DNA from: Bacteroidales bacterium
GTDB taxonomy: Bacteria > Bacteroidota > Bacteroidia > Bacteroidales > UBA4417
DNA: 64,000 nt
Assembly: GCA_016707705.1 (NCBI GenBank)
Contig: JADJHD010000020.1
Location: forward strand, 8,918 to 72,917
Direction of reading: 5' to 3'
Positions 8,352-51,360 of the stretch are shown piece by piece. The notes beneath the pieces were generated by a model. It saw only the letters and a list, made by a program, of their open reading frames with translations, was not told the origin of the DNA and did not search any database. The translations under genes and the position numbers were made by a program. Position 1 is the stretch's first letter; each line of letters begins with the position of its first letter.

Positions 8352-10299
<1,948 letters not shown>

Positions 10300-45367: not shown

Positions 45368-46701
45368 TTAGTTATGCTTAAGCAAAGCTTCACCGTATTT
45401 GCGGGTGATGATAACCCCGGCCTTCTTTAGGAATTCAATAGGTAGTTCTCCTCCAGCAAATATGAATACCAGATCATTCTTAATCATTATCTCCTCTGCA
45501 TTCTTAATGCCTTTCAGCACTACCGATTCCTTTAGAATATTCACAGGCAAAGTTTCGAAGATGACCTTCAGCTTCCCATCATTCATAGCTTGCTTAATGT
45601 TCTCGGCATTTTTAGGCTTTAACCGGCTAAACACATCACCACGATAGGAAAGCGTAACCTTGTTTTGATCGCATAGCAAAAGTGCGGATTCAATGGCTGA
45701 GTCTCCTCCTCCAACAACCAGGACTTCCTTTCCAGAAATTTCTTCAGGTTCAAGTAAGCGGTATGCTACTTTCTCCATCATTTCTCCCGGGACTCCAAGT
45801 TTCCTGGGAGTTCCCCTTCTGCCTACTGCCAGTAAAACAGTATTTGATGTAAGGATCTTCCCATTTCCGGTTTCGACCCTAAAAACTCCGTTTTCCTGTG
45901 TAATAGACTCTACTTTTGAGTTTTCCCTGATATTAATCCCATTCTTCAATAGGGCTTCATTCCATAAATCGAGAAGCTCAGGTTTGGAGGTTTCAAACAG
46001 CTTAATCTTACCTATAAAGGAAGATCCATTGCTGAAGTCATTACAATTTTCTGCCTTGGGAAAGTGTACACAGTACCTCCAAGAGTATCCTGTTCAAGAG
46101 TGGTGAATCGAAGATTGTGCTTTTTTGCAGTCAGGGAGGCAGAGATTCCTGCAGGCCCCGCTCCCACTATGATGAGGTCAAACTCAGCATGATGGGGCAA
46201 TTTGTGATACTTTGCGATATTTTCAACAGCCTGTTTACCCTGCTCTACAGCATTCTTGATAAGGCCCATTCCTCCCAGTTCACCGGCGATATAAATGCCA
46301 TTGACGTTGGTCTCAAAATTCTGATTGACATGTGGAAGGTCTACACCTCTTTTCTCAGTTCCAATACACAAAGTGATGGCCTGAGTTGGACAAGCATGAA
46401 AGCAGGCTCCATGTCCTATGCATTTTGAGGCATTGATGGTAGTTGCCTTACCATCCTTGATTCCTATGATATCTTTCTCAGGGCAGGCTGACACGCATGC
46501 ACCGGTACGAATGCAGCTATTGATATCAATAACAGGATGAAGTGACACCGGTTCAAACAGGCCTTCCTGTTTCGCCTTATTAATTTTCTCTTCAACAATC
46601 TTCGATTCCCGCTTTTGCTTTCGGAGATATATCCACACAACGAGGATGCAAAAAAGCGCAACTCCTCCATAGATTGCAATTTGCTCAAGGGCAGATTCCA
46701 T
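45368..46701 (-). pseudogene. Membrane-anchored 2x[4Fe-4S] ferredoxin-domain / FAD-NAD(P) pyridine-nucleotide-disulfide-type oxidoreductase, split by a 1-nt frameshift near 46012-46022
   Basis: ORF 46012..46701 carries a TM helix, CIRTGACVSACP and CIGHGACFHACP, and the GxGxxG motif DLIIVGAGPAG. It stops after ...AMDLPL. The next frame reads FIGKIKLFETSKPELLDLWNEALLKNGINIRE and runs straight into ORF 45368..45949, which carries the second Rossmann motif LVVGGGDSAIESA. Confidence 0.8.
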
Positions 46702-46705
46702 AGTT

Positions 46706-47575
46706 TTAGAATATCCAGCGGTAACCGAAAGTAATGGTTACTGCTACGTGAATAATCATGATTACAAGCATTACAAGTGCAAATGGCAAATGAGCTACAT
46801 GCCAGTATTTGAATAAGTTTTGCATGGTGGTTAAACGCTCTATCCTATGATTCAGTGATATTTCCGATTTAACGGATTTAATAATGCTTTTCACCTGATC
46901 ATTGGGGACTTGCTTATCTCTAAGGAGTTTCCTGACATTTCGAAGGTTACGTCTCTCCTTTCCGTATTGACGAATTATCCGGACGAAAAAATTCTCATCC
47001 ATTCTCTTTATACCAACCTGAGTCAGTGCCTCTATTTGCCGGGCACTTTCTTCATCCACCTGAACTGCCATCTGAATGGTTGCATTCATTTCACCCTTAA
47101 GTTCACGGATCTCATTCAAACTCAGTGCACGTCCCTCTATACTTCTTGGTATCTGAATATAGATAAACCTTCCAATAATGCCACTGAGGAATACCGCAAC
47201 CATACTCCAGAAGCTAATGGCGACAATACCTCCAAACTTAAAGGAAGTATGGAACAAAACCAGAATCGGACCAAGAGTACAGAGAAAAATGTGAAACTCA
47301 AGCCAATGTTTCAGAATTCCAAGTCGGCCAAGGCGTCTGACTCTTTTTCTGACCATATAAATAAGGACGCCAAATATCATAAAGAGAGATCCAATAATTC
47401 CCACTCCATGTCCCAAACTTCCACTAGGTTTCAGTTCAGAATGGTCAGCGTGAAAGAATCTTTCTTCAAGTCCGGTATTGTAATAGGAGTAACCTTTCTG
47501 AATAAGCAGAAAGAGTGCCGTTGCTACGAGCAGCGACATAATGGCAATGTAAATACCGTGTGTTACCCTTGACAT
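46706..47575 (-). CDS. Polytopic membrane protein with intramembrane His pairs (possible b-haem binding), unknown family
   Basis: Five predicted TM helices. His residues lie inside TM3 (KHWLEFHIFL...LVLFH) and TM5 (WHVAHLPFALVMLVIMIIHV). A ~115-aa charged helical cytoplasmic loop separates them. It is the first gene of the operon. Confidence 0.55.
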   Translation of the reverse strand: MSRVTHGIYIAIMSLLVATALFLLIQKGYSYYNTGLEERFFHADHSELKPSGSLGHGVGIIGSLFMIFGVLIYMVRKRVRRLGRLGILKHWLEFHIFLCTLGPILVLFHTSFKFGGIVAISFWSMVAVFLSGIIGRFIYIQIPRSIEGRALSLNEIRELKGEMNATIQMAVQVDEESARQIEALTQVGIKRMDENFFVRIIRQYGKERRNLRNVRKLLRDKQVPNDQVKSIIKSVKSEISLNHRIERLTTMQNLFKYWHVAHLPFALVMLVIMIIHVAVTITFGYRWIF

Positions 47576-47629
47576 TTAACCGTATTTCGTTATATTAACA
47601 CTCAGCAATCAAAATCAACAATTTAGATA

Positions 47630-47637
47630 CAAAGTTA
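47630..47637 (-). promoter_or_regulatory. -7 box (TAnnTTTG) candidate for the cytochrome operon
   Basis: Minus strand reads TAACTTTG, 55 nt upstream of the ATG at 47575. Confidence 0.3.
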
Positions 47638-47909
47638 GAAGTAATCATAAAGACTACTTATTGCAGATTCTATTTAGAGCCATTCCAAATAATTAATCAT
47701 CAGATTTACAAAAAGTAACACTAAAAACACTATTAAAATTTAGCGTTAAGATTGGTGGTTGGTGAGGAGTATAACGTCAAATTCTTCCATGTTATTTCGA
47801 GAGATGCCCGAATATTATCTTTCTGCCTTAGGATTTGACATTTGCAATAGAAAATGGATAGATAAAACTATTCAATGGACTTGGATTCAATATTTCTTAA
47901 ATTTGCATC

Positions 47910-48209
47910 ATGAAAGAGAGAATCACAAAATCCTTCTCATATGCCATTATACTGCTGTCACTGCTAATGTGCATAGATGAGAGTTTATTGTTCTTCTCCG
48001 ACAATACGAACAATATCTGCTTAACCATTCCAGATTGCAATTCGAATGTTCATCATGATAACTCGGGCTCTCCCGAACATTTTTATCAAAAGAATTCCAT
48101 ACACTTGGATTCTTCCCATAAACTGATAGCAAAGCAAGGCCTCCTGCCTGATTATCCACTTATCAGTCAATATTCTGCCTCCATTTGGCAGCCACCAAAG
48201 GTTTCCTAG
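47910..48209 (+). CDS. Small hypothetical exported or membrane protein
   Basis: 99 aa with a hydrophobic N-terminus (FSYAIILLSLLMCI). The C-terminus ends ...SIWQPPKVS. I recognise no family. Confidence 0.4.
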   Translation: MKERITKSFSYAIILLSLLMCIDESLLFFSDNTNNICLTIPDCNSNVHHDNSGSPEHFYQKNSIHLDSSHKLIAKQGLLPDYPLISQYSASIWQPPKVS

Positions 48210-48289
48210 ATCACCCAGTTGAAGTTAATTCAGAATAATAAGCACATTAGCTTGTTATTCAATTATTTCACCATGCAAACCTTTGCAAT

Positions 48290-48664
48290 ATGGATATTTC
48301 CGAATTATTTGAAGATGGCCGGAGCCACAAGAAACATTATTCCAAAAAGTCTGATTACAGATATCATCAAAAGGATAATCACTTCACACCAGAACACCAT
48401 CATGAACATTATGATGACAACTACAGTCGACCTCATAATAAACATGGCTTTTCAGGTCACAGGAGCAATGACTTTTTGATGCGAGTTGCTCAGCATCTGA
48501 AAGCTAATCCCAGGCTTAGGTTGCTGATTATTGTAATCTGCCTCATCCTGGCAATTCTTATCATCGGACTAATAGTAATGATACTGCCCGCAATACTCTC
48601 TTTCCTTGAGCGATTGCTTTCAGGGGATTTGGTTAAGTCTTTTCAAAATCTTCTAAAAGACTAA
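48290..48664 (+). CDS. His-rich small membrane protein (putative metal-binding)
   Basis: The N-terminal 60 aa are rich in His, Lys and Asp (HKKHYSKK..YHQKDNHFTPEHHHEHYDD..HNKHGFSGH). A single C-terminal TM helix follows. It lies directly upstream of the CDF transporter. Confidence 0.55.
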   Translation: MDISELFEDGRSHKKHYSKKSDYRYHQKDNHFTPEHHHEHYDDNYSRPHNKHGFSGHRSNDFLMRVAQHLKANPRLRLLIIVICLILAILIIGLIVMILPAILSFLERLLSGDLVKSFQNLLKD

Positions 48665-48677
48665 TACCCGCTGAAAA

Positions 48678-49535
48678 ATGGAAAAAGAGAAAAAGTCCGT
48701 AGCAGGTTGGTCAGTGGTAGCAGCTGTGTTCCTTACAGGTTTCAAGCTTATTGTCGGGCTATTTACCGGAAGCTTGGGAATCCTGTCGGAAGCATTGCAT
48801 TCCGGCCTTGACCTGGTTGCAGCTGTTATAACCTATTTTTCTGTTAGAATCTCCGATAAACCAGCAGATATAAAACACCCATACGGACATGGAAAGGTTG
48901 AGAATCTTTCTGCCCTGCTCGAAACATTGCTATTGATAATTACATGCTTTTGGATAATCTATGAAGCTGTTGAGCGACTTGCGTCCGGGAAAACACATAT
49001 CGAGGTTAATATCTGGAGTTATATTGTTGTCGTGACATCCATCGTGGTGGACTATACCAGGTCCCGGGCATTGTACAGAACGGCCCGAAAATACAACAGT
49101 CAGGCTCTTGAAGCGGATGCATTGCATTTCTCAACAGATATCTGGAGCTCTTCCGTAGTATTGATAGGCCTGATCTGCGCCAACTTTGGCTACCATATAG
49201 CTGATCCAATTGCAGCACTAGGCGTTGCAGCAATAGTGCTGGTTGTTTCTTTCAAACTGGGAGAAAGAGCAGTAAATGTACTTTTAGATACAAGTCCAGC
49301 TCCGGCGAGGGAAGAAATAGCTGCTTTATTGGACGACACAACAGGAATATTAGCATACAATGACCTTAAAGTCAGGGTATCAGGTGCTGATACATTTGTA
49401 AATGTAACCCTGAAATTTGAACCTTCACTTAGCCTGGAAGCTGCACACAGGCTTTCTGATACTATTGAAGAACAGATTCATCAAAGGATTGAGCGCTGCA
49501 ATGTTCATATCCATTATGAACCAGCATCAAGTTAA
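48678..49535 (+). CDS. Cation diffusion facilitator (CDF) family divalent-metal efflux transporter
   Basis: Six TM helices with CDF motifs (SEALHSGLDL, HFSTDIWSS) and a C-terminal cytoplasmic domain; 285 aa. Confidence 0.8.
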   Translation: MEKEKKSVAGWSVVAAVFLTGFKLIVGLFTGSLGILSEALHSGLDLVAAVITYFSVRISDKPADIKHPYGHGKVENLSALLETLLLIITCFWIIYEAVERLASGKTHIEVNIWSYIVVVTSIVVDYTRSRALYRTARKYNSQALEADALHFSTDIWSSSVVLIGLICANFGYHIADPIAALGVAAIVLVVSFKLGERAVNVLLDTSPAPAREEIAALLDDTTGILAYNDLKVRVSGADTFVNVTLKFEPSLSLEAAHRLSDTIEEQIHQRIERCNVHIHYEPASS

Positions 49536-49562
49536 ATTTTTCGATAACTAAAATTCTGCAAA

Positions 49563-50270
49563 ATGAGAACTTACGTTTGGAGTCTGCCAACCAGAATATT
49601 TCATTGGTTGCTCGTAATTGGAGTTGTACTGGCTTATGTGCTTGGAGAGGAAGAGGAGCTTTTAAATCTGCATTCCTCCATCGGATATGCCCTGGGTATT
49701 TTAATGCTGTTCCGAATTCTTTGGGGTCTTGCAGGACCTTTATATTCAAGATTCCGGGATTTCCCCATCAGCTTGAAAAATCTGATGTTCTTTTTCAAAA
49801 CCTTAGGTAATAGAAAATCCGGGTTCATTGGTCATAATCCGGCAGCCTCACTGATCATGCTGGCAATTATACTGGATGTTTTGTGCATTGTTGGAACGGG
49901 AATAATAATGATGTCATCAAGAGGAGAAGGTCTCTTCGGAAATTTCACCCCGGGATTTGACCCTGAAACCTATAAGGAATTGCATGAAGTATTTGTCAAC
50001 TTCCTGATAATCATAATTATTATGCACCTTTTGGGACTGGCAACCGACTTCTTTTTCCATCCCAAGGACAGAACAATACTTTCAATGTTCAATGGTTATA
50101 AAAATCTTGAAGGACCTAAAGTAAAAGTGAACAGTATCCAATGGATACTTGCAATAATCGGAATAACTGCAGCATTTACAATAATACCCTATTCACTGCT
50201 AAACCAGCAAATCAATCCTGAAAATAACCAATCTGAACAGTCAGAATTTGAAGAAATGGATGAGGATTGA
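49563..50270 (+). CDS. Cytochrome b (b561 / Ni-Fe-hydrogenase b-type subunit family) membrane protein
   Basis: The N-terminus WSLPTRIFHWLLVIGVVLAYVLG is typical of this family. Four TM helices carry conserved His residues. Confidence 0.7.
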   Translation: MRTYVWSLPTRIFHWLLVIGVVLAYVLGEEEELLNLHSSIGYALGILMLFRILWGLAGPLYSRFRDFPISLKNLMFFFKTLGNRKSGFIGHNPAASLIMLAIILDVLCIVGTGIIMMSSRGEGLFGNFTPGFDPETYKELHEVFVNFLIIIIIMHLLGLATDFFFHPKDRTILSMFNGYKNLEGPKVKVNSIQWILAIIGITAAFTIIPYSLLNQQINPENNQSEQSEFEEMDED

Positions 50271-50335
50271 TTAACTGCATTACAATAGTGCAATCTTCAG
50301 GGAAACTTACAAACTTGTGGGATTGCTAACATTCT

Positions 50336-50374
50336 ACCGGTCAGAATTAATAGTGGATAATAATTCTGGCCGGT
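50336..50374 (+). terminator. Hairpin terminator candidate after the cytochrome b gene
   Basis: 14-bp stem ACCGGTCAGAATTA / TAATTCTGGCCGGT with one G-U pair and a 10-nt loop. The tail is T/A-rich. Confidence 0.55.
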
Positions 50375-50526
50375 TTAATTCAATGAAGGAACAGCGGCAT
50401 AGTATAGGCTGTCAGAAATTAGACCTGCGAAAATTGAGGTCAGGACATTTTGAGCACTCACCTTATTAATGAAATGCTAAAATCTTCCAGCCGACTTATC
50501 TAATATGTCACATATATAATACTGAC

Positions 50527-50534
50527 TATATTTG
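50527..50534 (+). promoter_or_regulatory. -7 box (TAnnTTTG)
   Basis: TATATTTG lies 53 nt upstream of the ATG at 50587. Confidence 0.4.
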
Positions 50535-50586
50535 CAGTTCTAAACCATGCTCATACTACTAATCCAATCAACTGCATACTTCTGCT

Positions 50587-51360
50587 ATGAAAACATCAGA
50601 AAAAAACAAGAGTCAAAATAAACGTATTTTACTGATAACCATGAGCCTGGCTTTAGTTATCCTTACATTTTCATGTAGTCATGGAAGTACCGCCTCAATC
50701 AATCTCAAGGAGAAGGGAATATTTCAGGCAACTGTTAGTGAAGTACTGCAATCAAAAGGATACACCTATTTGAAGGTTCAGGAGGAGAAAACGGAGAAAT
50801 GGCTTGTCGTTCCAACTATCAATATCAGCATCGCATCAAAGGTTTATTACAGAGAAGGTTTCAGGATGACAGAGTTTTCAAGCAAGGAGTTGAACAGGTC
50901 TTTCAGTGAGGTATACTTTCTTGAAACGATTGCAACCGATCCTGCACAATTATCAATTGATACTTTGCCTGTTCCCTCTAAATCTGTGCATCAGGAAATG
51001 AATTCGCCTGCAGCACAGGAAGATACTGTTATCAACAATCCGAATCAGGTTCCAATTTCTGACGGCAACAAGATTACTATTGAAAGTATATACAGAAATA
51101 AAGAAACTCTAAACGGTAAACTTGTGGTGATAAGTGGTAAAGTGACAAAATTCAATGAACGCATCATGGGAAAAAACTGGATCCATATTCAGGATGGCAG
51201 CAGCTTTGACAAATATAATGACCTCACTGTCACCACCAGGGAAACAGTAAAAGTCGGAGAAACCGTAAAACTCCAGGGGAAGTTGGTGTTAAACCAGGAT
51301 TTCGGATACGGATATTCCTATGAAATACTTCTCGAGGAAGCCATAATAATTACACAATAG
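50587..51360 (+). CDS. Lipoprotein with two OB-fold-like halves; paralogue of 38480..39211
   Basis: Lipobox ...LTFSC. Both halves align with 38480..39211, for example ISGKVTKFNERIMGKNWIHIQDGS...QGKLVLNQDFGYGY. Confidence 0.55.
   Translation: MKTSEKNKSQNKRILLITMSLALVILTFSCSHGSTASINLKEKGIFQATVSEVLQSKGYTYLKVQEEKTEKWLVVPTINISIASKVYYREGFRMTEFSSKELNRSFSEVYFLETIATDPAQLSIDTLPVPSKSVHQEMNSPAAQEDTVINNPNQVPISDGNKITIESIYRNKETLNGKLVVISGKVTKFNERIMGKNWIHIQDGSSFDKYNDLTVTTRETVKVGETVKLQGKLVLNQDFGYGYSYEILLEEAIIITQ

Follow-up and report, generated by a model that had tools for sequence, protein, structure and literature searches.

Electrons are known to enter extracellular conduits at the inner membrane in a few model systems, through CymA in Shewanella or through ImcH, CbcL, or CbcBA in Geobacter, and in every one of these the source is the quinol pool. 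Here we describe a five-gene cytochrome operon of a Bacteroidales bacterium whose first two genes may form an input module in which an Fe-S flavoprotein, anchored by a transmembrane (TM) helix, would hand NAD(P)H electrons to a dihaem cytochrome b in the inner membrane. The operon lies on the minus strand, between 39253 and 47575, of a 64,000-nucleotide stretch (positions 8,918 to 72,917 of contig JADJHD010000020.1, assembly GCA_016707705.1), which we refer to as the window and which is numbered from its own first letter. Its genes are tightly spaced. Gene 1 (47575 to 46706) encodes an inner-membrane protein of 289 amino acids with five TM helices and is followed, after a gap of 4 bases between stop and start, by gene 2 (46701 to 45368), which encodes the flavoprotein, 444 amino acids long if intact and present here as two open reading frames (ORFs; 46701 to 46012 and 45949 to 45368). 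Two cytochrome genes and a gene for an exported protein follow on the same strand.

The closest described counterpart of this operon is the PCC3 cluster, which He et al. reported in 2017 and in which an inner-membrane protein (IMP) is encoded together with a porin, a periplasmic cytochrome with a median of 21 haems, and an extracellular cytochrome of larger size (PMC5566968). The IMP was defined by a length of about 300 amino acids, five TM helices, the motif SGxxG on TM4, and the motif Wx3Hx13H on both TM3 and TM5; it was likened to a ferric-reductase domain (FRD), predicted to hold two b-haems, and suggested to be quinone active (PMC5566968). Gene 1 shares with the IMPs of PCC3 and PCC4 (PMC5566968, PMC10734462) the length, the number of TM helices, the two predicted b-haems, and all motifs, with SGIIG at residues 131 to 135 on TM4 and Wx3Hx13H at residues 91 to 109 (WLEFH...H, TM3) and 258 to 276 (WHVAH...H, TM5). 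The remainder of the operon corresponds to PCC3 as well. Downstream of gene 2 lie a 20-haem cytochrome c of 535 amino acids with a signal peptide (45344 to 43737), which matches the periplasmic multihaem cytochrome of PCC3, a cytochrome c of 960 amino acids with 36 CxxCH motifs and one longer motif (37 sites; 43758 to 40876), which matches the extracellular multihaem cytochrome, and, at the operon end, an exported protein of 538 amino acids (40869 to 39253), presumed to be an outer-membrane barrel. PCC3 clusters likewise combine a barrel and a periplasmic cytochrome of about 21 haems with a larger, variable extracellular cytochrome, and the haem number of the orthologues of the second cytochrome ranged from 13 to 64 across orthologous loci. 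The 538-amino-acid protein had no family match in Pfam or NCBIfam and was kept as the last operon gene in related loci. Judged by motifs and gene content, with the founding proteobacterial IMPs compared by their description, the operon is a PCC3-type cluster in the sense of He et al. It differs from the described clusters in its host and in its second gene: PCC3 IMPs have been described in Proteobacteria only (for PCC4, also in a few Planctomycetes), in work on Fe(II) oxidation and with a proposed quinone activity, and a flavoprotein for PCC3 is mentioned neither by He et al. nor in the pangenome study of Gallionellaceae, and nor are Bacteroidota (PMC5566968, PMC10734462). An earlier note on this DNA had called the product of gene 1 unusual. 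All the features it named are present, but the IMP and its cluster type have been known since 2017 from a computational description in which a dihaem cytochrome b was already predicted.

Outside the PCC3 clusters, the proposed electron path resembles that of NOX enzymes and ferric reductases (PF01794; NOX, FRE, and SpNOX; PMC5676040, PMC11031084), in which electrons pass from NAD(P)H via a flavin and two bis-His b-haems to an acceptor outside the cell, and in which the His pairs are also located on TM3 and TM5 with a spacing of about 13 residues and TM1 to TM5 have the same N-in orientation. Gene 1 does not have the FRD/NOX layout, however; it has five TM helices and not six, and the dehydrogenase is a separate, TM-anchored protein with a thioredoxin reductase (TrxR)/YpdA fold instead of the FNR fold of NOX and with two putative Fe-S clusters, whereas the presumed acceptor is a multihaem cytochrome in place of the O2 or Fe(III) chelate reduced by NOX and FRD proteins. 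In Escherichia coli, the dihaem cytochrome b MsrQ is similarly fed by a separate cytoplasmic NAD(P)H flavoprotein, Fre, and reduces a periplasmic redox protein (PMC12525009), but MsrQ is a true FRD member, Fre is soluble, lacks Fe-S clusters, and is not encoded beside msrQ, and the acceptor is the molybdoenzyme MsrP. Four central His residues, two b-haems, and a proposed transfer from the cytosol to the outside are also found in the DUF4405, PepSY-TM (FoxB), and FezC cytochromes b, and DUF4405 and FezC have been demonstrated to bind haem b (PMC11334425); these proteins differ from gene 1 in the number of helices and in their partners, which are flavinylated proteins, siderophores, and ferrosomes.

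For gene 2, the best sequence and fold matches are YpdA/Bdr and the TrxR-like FNRs (PDB 7a76, 7a7b, 3ab1, and 2zbw), which have the same two-Rossmann FAD/NAD(P)H architecture without a CxxC motif, whereas the body of gene 2 departs by permutation from the linear FAD-NADPH-FAD order of YpdA/Bdr and is joined to both a TM anchor and an Fe-S domain with two cluster motifs. The Tmc and Hmc complexes of sulfate reducers, in which a cytochrome b joins periplasmic multihaem cytochromes c to cytoplasmic Fe-S proteins (PMC4215793), provide a precedent for transfer between the cytoplasm and periplasmic cytochromes that need not use free quinone. Unlike the window operon, they contain a NarI-type cytochrome b and CCG-domain Fe-S proteins, have no NAD(P)H flavoprotein and no outer-membrane conduit, and work inward, towards sulfite reduction.

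Gene 1 contains five hydrophobic segments (Kyte-Doolittle peaks at about residues 7 to 25, 57 to 75, 92 to 112, 116 to 140, and 263 to 281), with which the helices of an AlphaFold2 model (pLDDT, 92; pTM, 0.82) agreed. Conservation was assessed in an alignment of 55 full-length relatives with 28 to 56% identity. In these sequences the loop at residues 76 to 89 carries on average 5.7 Lys plus Arg residues versus 0.1 Asp plus Glu residues, the domain at residues 141 to 256 is charged and net basic, and the loop at residues 110 to 116 and the C terminus are nearly without charge. Hydropathy, positive-inside bias, and the model together predict an N-in, five-TM, C-out topology, which places H95 and H262 towards the cytoplasm and H109 and H276 towards the periplasm. 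The conserved helical domain at residues 141 to 256, which by charge bias is cytoplasmic and corresponds to the long charged loop reported in the earlier note, appears suited to protein docking. The His residues that the same note had located inside TM3 (HWLEFH...LFH) and TM5 (WHVAH...IIH), and on whose conservation it had staked its reading, were found in both strings and proved to be nearly invariant in diverse homologues: H95 was present in 54 and H109, H262, and H276 in all of the 55 relatives, with the exceptions within these strings being H259 (48 of 55) and H90 (8 of 55). The four conserved residues form two H-x13-H pairs, one on TM3 and one on TM5, and two such pairs were present in every relative; the complete Wx3Hx13H motif occurred twice in 51 and SGxxG in 52 of the 55 sequences, and W91, W258, S131, G132, and G135 were near invariant. 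This geometry matches that expected of the ligands of two b-haems stacked across the membrane, one predicted to be held by H95 and H262 and the other by H109 and H276. The family is large, with more than 7000 clusters at 90% identity and 2893 representatives (50% identity) at an E value of ≤0.001 in a library of 1.84 billion proteins.

The product of gene 2 begins with an acidic tail and a TM helix at residues 8 to 26 (46680 to 46624), seen in the sequence and as a long N-terminal helix in the AlphaFold2 model, which is followed by RKQKRESK, a ferredoxin domain of the Fer4 type at residues 56 to 112 (46536 to 46366), and an FAD/NAD(P)-binding body. No signal and no twin-arginine motif were found at the N terminus, and the acidic tail, the single helix, and the basic RKQKRESK stretch behind it predict that the body is cytoplasmic, as had been proposed from the helix and its basic flank. 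The ferredoxin domain was recognized by Fer4_10 (41.3 bits; cutoff, 25.5) and Fer4_7 (37.6 bits; cutoff, 27) and in alignments, and a Pyr_redox_3 domain was also detected by Pfam. The two Fe-S motifs and two Rossmann motifs that had been noticed earlier are all present: CIRTGACVSACP and CIGHGACFHACP in the ferredoxin domain, VGAGPAG (FAD; 46170 to 46147), and GGGDSA (NAD(P); 45712 to 45695), the last followed by an invariant SYRGDVFSR (Y-R...R) that aligns with YRGIEYSPS of Bdr. Both Fe-S motifs lack the second Cys (Cx2Tx2Cx3CP and Cx2Hx2Cx3CP), such that gene 2 has, in place of two complete CxxCxxCxxxCP motifs with eight Cys residues, three Cys residues in each motif, six in total, and an invariant His (H97); T66 is replaced by Ser or Cys in distant relatives, some of which have a canonical CxxCxxCxxxCP as the first motif. 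FAD, NAD(P), and Fe-S motifs were kept down to relatives with 43 to 46% identity, and the TM anchor was moderately conserved outside Bacteroidia. The body matches YpdA/Bdr, TrxR, and TrxR-like FNRs both in sequence (E = 5e-25) and in Foldseek (E = 1e-19), and its two halves scored 48 and 95 bits with the YpdA/Bdr model TIGR04018, below the cutoff of 339.9. Across 32 sequences the body has no conserved Cys pair, including the CxxC of TrxR (TIGR01292), and it is therefore not a disulfide reductase. A thiol-reductant exporter resembling DsbD or CcdA was considered for the two proteins and ruled out, since neither contains conserved Cys pairs outside the Fe-S motifs.

The earlier note had remarked that GIYIAGELGG, a segment typical of the C-terminal end of TrxR-like flavoproteins, precedes the first GxGxxG motif, and had taken this as a hint of a rearranged domain order. 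Alignments substantiated that hint. With HMMER, residues 176 to 438 of gene 2 aligned to residues 6 to 275 of Bdr/YpdA, whereupon the protein ends, and residues 122 to 165 (NQNFETNVNGIYIAGELGG and the following helix; NGIYIAGELGG, 46338 to 46207; strand 136 to 140 and helix 148 to 165 in the model) aligned to residues 273 to 298 of Bdr and 282 to 326 of the Chlorobaculum FNR. When residues 119 to 168 were moved behind the C terminus, a single-piece alignment with Bdr was obtained (6 to 300 with 6 to 298) at a higher score, and several TrxRs and FNRs aligned almost end to end with the repermuted sequence, again with higher scores. On these alignments the body is a true circular permutation, in which the C-terminal FAD motif precedes the first Rossmann motif, and the permutation was retained in relatives from other lineages with 43 to 46% identity. 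The permutation joins the Fe-S domain directly to the FAD-adjacent strand in sequence, and by this arrangement the Fe-S domain and FAD would be close in space. A permuted core of this type (model positions 115/120 to 437; E values of about 1e-80) was also embedded in ORFs of about 780 to 1060 amino acids in 11 genomes, for example at G121:C1:2267043-2267996 and G009:C44:14852-15823.

Whether the two genes are linked with one another and with cytochrome genes was assessed in 80 loci from Bacteroidota genomes (Bacteroidales, Marinilabiliales, Prolixibacteraceae, Draconibacterium, Saprospiraceae, Lewinellaceae, and others) in which gene 1 had 53 to 66% identity. The flavoprotein gene was found beside gene 1 in all 80 loci, fragmented in a few. 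Directly downstream of the pair, 74 loci had a gene for a multihaem cytochrome (at least 10 CxxCH motifs, mostly 20 or 23), and in 55 of these a second cytochrome (13 to 64 haems) and a barrel were also seen, with the rest reaching a contig edge or differing downstream. Of the remaining six loci, two had the cytochrome gene fragmented or displaced by an inserted gene, two were at a contig end, and two had the pair without any multihaem cytochrome on the contig (L035, 8973 to 11256; L067, 2923 to 5244), so that a wide occurrence of the pair away from cytochromes, the outcome that the earlier note had held would refute its reading, was not observed. Behind the pair, L035 has a convergent gene of 816 amino acids and L067 a gene for an exported nonhaem protein of 599 amino acids. 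Four distant loci with about 30% identity, one from Rhodothermales and the others near sequences named Gemmatimonadales, keep all five components in a rearranged order, either gene 1, (TPR), two multihaem cytochromes, barrel, and flavoprotein or a flavoprotein gene divergent from gene 1, two multihaem cytochromes, and barrel. In an even sample of 401 Bacteroidota genomes, a full-length gene 1 (E ≤ 1e-80) was present in 44 and the flavoprotein (E ≤ 1e-130) in 43, all of which were among the 44; the co-occurrence of the two genes was thus nearly complete. The two genes were less than 10 kb apart on one contig in 37 of these 43 genomes, about half of them adjacent and half at opposite ends of the cluster, and were near contig ends in the other six. 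That the genes are retained when their order is shuffled and are coupled almost perfectly across genomes strongly indicates that the two proteins work together with the cytochromes.

A nonorthologous variant was found in two further clusters (L094, G009:C31, 3141 to 10694; L095, G321:C2), in which a distant relative of gene 1 (278 amino acids; E = 1e-25) is flanked by a protein of 545 amino acids with three cNMP-binding domains and 4Fe-4S clusters and by a decahaem cytochrome of 559 amino acids, with a flavoprotein of 781 amino acids (Pyr_redox, FHA, and 2Fe-2S) and further multihaem genes nearby. From its domains this variant appears to follow the same principle under the control of a signal. 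Two loci of Saprospiraceae and Lewinellaceae with a 23-haem cytochrome and no barrel nearby contain a second flavoprotein paralogue with 56 to 58% identity about 4 kb downstream on the opposite strand (L055, 16401 to 17840, minus; L077, 16384 to 17709, minus).

We propose that genes 1 and 2 encode the module through which electrons enter a PCC3-type porin-multihaem-cytochrome conduit at the inner membrane. Gene 2 would oxidize NAD(P)H at FAD and pass single electrons to its two Fe-S clusters, from which they would reach the cytoplasmic-side b-haem of gene 1 (H95/H262) and then the periplasmic-side b-haem (H109/H276), the 20-haem periplasmic cytochrome, and finally the 37-site cytochrome and the outer-membrane barrel, with Fe(III), humics, or a partner cell as the extracellular acceptor; the whole would act as a two-component, NOX-like NAD(P)H:extracellular-acceptor oxidoreductase. 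That gene 1 is a dihaem b transmembrane relay working with the flavoprotein we consider quite probable. The full path from NAD(P)H to an extracellular acceptor is the account that we favor on balance, with donor identity, direction, and quinone independence held at lower confidence than the dihaem relay itself. What we infer from the features described above is that gene 1 binds haem b, that the two proteins touch, that NAD(P)H is the donor, and that electrons flow outward and independently of quinone. The electron would leave a negative-inside cell while the proton stays behind, dissipating the membrane potential, as expected from the electrogenic behavior of NOX, and the module would therefore be a sink for the redox balance of a fermenter rather than a coupling site. 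The TM helix of gene 2, which by the predicted topology starts on the outer side of the membrane, the side on which TM5 of gene 1 finishes, may add to the five helices of gene 1 and rebuild a six-helix ferric-reductase-like bundle, which is speculative. Tentatively, and with somewhat less than even weight, the pair can be viewed as a split NOX, that is, a quinone-independent, NAD(P)H-driven transmembrane exporter that would constitute a third type of gate beside the CymA type and the ImcH/Cbc type, with a six-helix bundle and a permuted YpdA-type body replacing the FNR-type dehydrogenase.

Several observations, set out here and with the alternatives below, weigh against this reading. Both gene families are known from sequence alone. 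Nothing above threshold was obtained for gene 1 in Pfam or NCBIfam, Foldseek with its AlphaFold2 model found nothing in the PDB below an E value of 0.2, such that there is no solved-structure support for a NOX, MsrQ, or b561 fold, and a family profile searched against PDB sequences returned coiled-coil noise on the cytoplasmic domain only. In favor of the reading, when the 55 relatives were scanned against Pfam at a permissive threshold, subthreshold matches to DUF4405 (37 of 55; best, 4e-5), Ferric_reduct (23 of 55; best, 1.5e-4), and Ni_hydr_CYTB, the cytochrome b561 family (16 of 55; best, 1e-4), recurred. Gene 1 itself stayed below threshold for DUF4405 (PF14358; E = 0.051; 14.5 bits versus a cutoff of 26.7) and had no match to Ferric_reduct (PF01794); in hhalign with bona fide DUF4405 proteins from the same phylum, H95 and H109 were placed on H-x13-H with a probability of 20% (E = 0.0011), in an alignment confined to TM2 and TM3. 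By these profile comparisons gene 1 is a remote relative, and not a member, of the three families. For the kinship with dihaem b proteins that the earlier note had envisaged, the evidence is mixed: the recurrent subthreshold matches to three haem b families point towards it, but no match was obtained at the Pfam threshold or in the PDB. As for gene 2, the AlphaFold2 model is moderate (pLDDT, 70; below 50 for the Fe-S domain), and the three-Cys motifs suggest [3Fe-4S] and/or His-ligated [4Fe-4S] clusters.

Gene 1 could instead be a quinol-oxidizing or quinone-reducing dihaem cytochrome b that ties the conduit to menaquinone, with the flavoprotein as an accessory that, for example, supplies the same b-haems from NAD(P)H or has a redox-poising or regulatory role, and not as the main entry. 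Quinone activity is the published proposal for the IMP (PMC5566968), Ni_hydr_CYTB, to which gene 1 relatives show weak similarity, is a quinone-active family, and a gene for a canonical b561-type cytochrome b, divergent and conserved next to the operon, makes a quinol route possible. Moreover, short relatives of gene 1 of about 200 to 250 amino acids, which match TM2 to TM4 (E values of about 1e-12) and keep the C-terminal W..H...H helix, occur directly upstream of decahaem cytochrome genes with no flavoprotein within 5 kb (L092, G098:C1, 7495 to 9087; L096, G097:C1, 8152 to 10451, where a CDF transporter follows the decahaem cytochrome). They were found in about 60 of the 401 genomes, mostly in one family with genomes of 2 to 3 Mb and often with DUF4405 genes less than 3 kb away, and imply that a cytochrome b of this kind can be fed otherwise, to which the two of 80 loci with a pair lacking adjacent cytochromes may be added. 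The coupling of the flavoprotein to gene 1 in 43 of 44 genomes, which persists in loci with a shuffled gene order, however, points to an obligate partner, and the cNMP/FHA variant independently joins a gene 1-like protein with cytoplasmic Fe-S proteins and flavoproteins. Both predicted haem planes of gene 1 are, furthermore, fully His ligated, no conserved quinone-site motif was identified in the protein, and its conserved cytoplasmic domain at residues 141 to 256 suits docking. We regard the quinone alternative as unlikely, although less so than a reversal of the flow, in which extracellular donors such as Fe(II), reduced humics, cathodes, or partner cells would deliver electrons via the b-haems to NAD(P)+ or another cytoplasmic acceptor. 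Inward flow is how PCC3 was first encountered, in Fe(II)-oxidizing bacteria (PMC5566968, PMC10734462), multihaem conduits are reversible in principle, and TrxR-like FNRs run both ways. For donors at the level of Fe(II), nevertheless, such flow would be doubly uphill, into a negative-inside cell and onto the NAD(P) couple; the carriers are Bacteroidales, Prolixibacteraceae, Lentimicrobium-type, and similar bacteria, typically fermenters of sludge and sediment, and the neighboring CDF and VIT1 genes, for efflux and storage of Fe(II) and other metals, fit the production of Fe(II). Inward operation of the module is, in our view, improbable.

Finally, gene 2 is split in the window by a 1-nucleotide deletion, in which a Tyr codon (TAT) lost one base and a premature TAG arose (46014 to 46012), and the operon could be a dead copy whose function has passed to a paralogous operon. 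The stop is present in the window sequence, and an intact paralogous operon with a flavoprotein of 444 amino acids does exist in the same genome, on contig C52. However, where the window reads TTATA-GG, a contig with 99% identity that encodes an intact protein of 444 amino acids (P0122) reads TTATATGG, and the missing base, located behind 46012, was present in four of four public run assemblies of near-identical strains from three studies. Neither half of gene 2 carries any further lesion, and similar scattered breaks were seen in three other loci (L027, L029, and L050), where the flavoprotein, cytochrome, and barrel genes are split into many short ORFs in a pattern typical of indel-prone assemblies. 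The most likely cause of the break is an error of assembly or a lesion confined to this copy of the genome, and a dead operon has little probability. A programmed frameshift was ruled out, since in near-identical strains, which carry the additional base, the Tyr codon is whole; an extra base in the run at 46016 to 46018 (giving DLPFIGKIK) was likewise ruled out, since the assemblies place the base behind 46012, which gives DLPLYGKIK.

In a literature search with partial journal coverage, we found no description of a flavoprotein or NAD(P)H feeding PCC3 or the cytochrome clusters of Bacteroidota. Within the literature searched, the results suggest that the Fe-S flavoprotein with its membrane anchor and circular permutation, the nearly obligate pairing of this protein with the IMP, and the spread of the module in Bacteroidota, including Saprospiraceae and Rhodothermales, are new. 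PCC3-type clusters are widespread: the module was present in about one in nine of the sampled Bacteroidota genomes, and the membrane family comprises thousands of sequence clusters. How PCC3 is linked to metabolism has been a matter of an assumed quinone connection in the literature, to which the flavoprotein offers a concrete and testable answer. If the proposed mechanism is correct, fermentative Bacteroidota and their relatives would be able to dispose of reducing equivalents onto minerals, humics, or partner cells without a respiratory chain, and nonrespiring fermenters in sludge, sediments, and digesters could have their electron sinks in Fe(III), humics, conductive particles, or partner cells. 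A compact cassette of five genes could also serve the engineering of NAD(P)H-coupled electron export, and enzymologists will take an interest in a TrxR-fold flavoenzyme that is circularly permuted in nature.

The paralogous operon (locus L087, contig C52:1-20000) has 67% (gene 1) and 76% (gene 2) amino acid identity to that of the window and comprises a gene 1 homologue and the intact flavoprotein, along with a 20-haem cytochrome and a second cytochrome in fragments. On its divergent side lie genes for a small exported protein, a CDF protein, a cytochrome b561, OB-like, TPR, ResB/CcsA, and NHL proteins, an 11-haem cytochrome, and a histidine kinase.

Sequences near identical to the window were found chiefly in activated-sludge metagenomes. 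Contigs from one activated-sludge metatranscriptome with 95 to 100% identity covered all five genes and stopped at 47591, 16 bases upstream of the start of gene 1, and nothing was found across 47596 to 48200. A TAnnTTTG -7 box of the Bacteroidetes type (TAACTTTG) is located at 47637 to 47630. At a low depth at which DNA carry-over is possible, these positions would fit gene 1 as the first gene of the transcript, with a start about 20 to 45 nucleotides upstream of the ATG.

Upstream of the operon, a divergent cassette (47910 to 51360) is kept in orthologous loci. Among its products are a CDF cation-efflux protein (Pfam E = 7e-47) and the b561-type cytochrome already mentioned (Ni_hydr_CYTB; E = 8e-25); the cassette further encodes a small exported protein, a His-rich protein that has a TM helix at its C terminus, and a lipoprotein-like protein of 257 amino acids that belongs to no family. 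In orthologous loci, genes for a VIT1 iron transporter and for cytochrome maturation (ResB/CcsA) are also present, and these conserved neighbors (CDF, b561, VIT1, and ResB/CcsA) fit a system that produces Fe(II).

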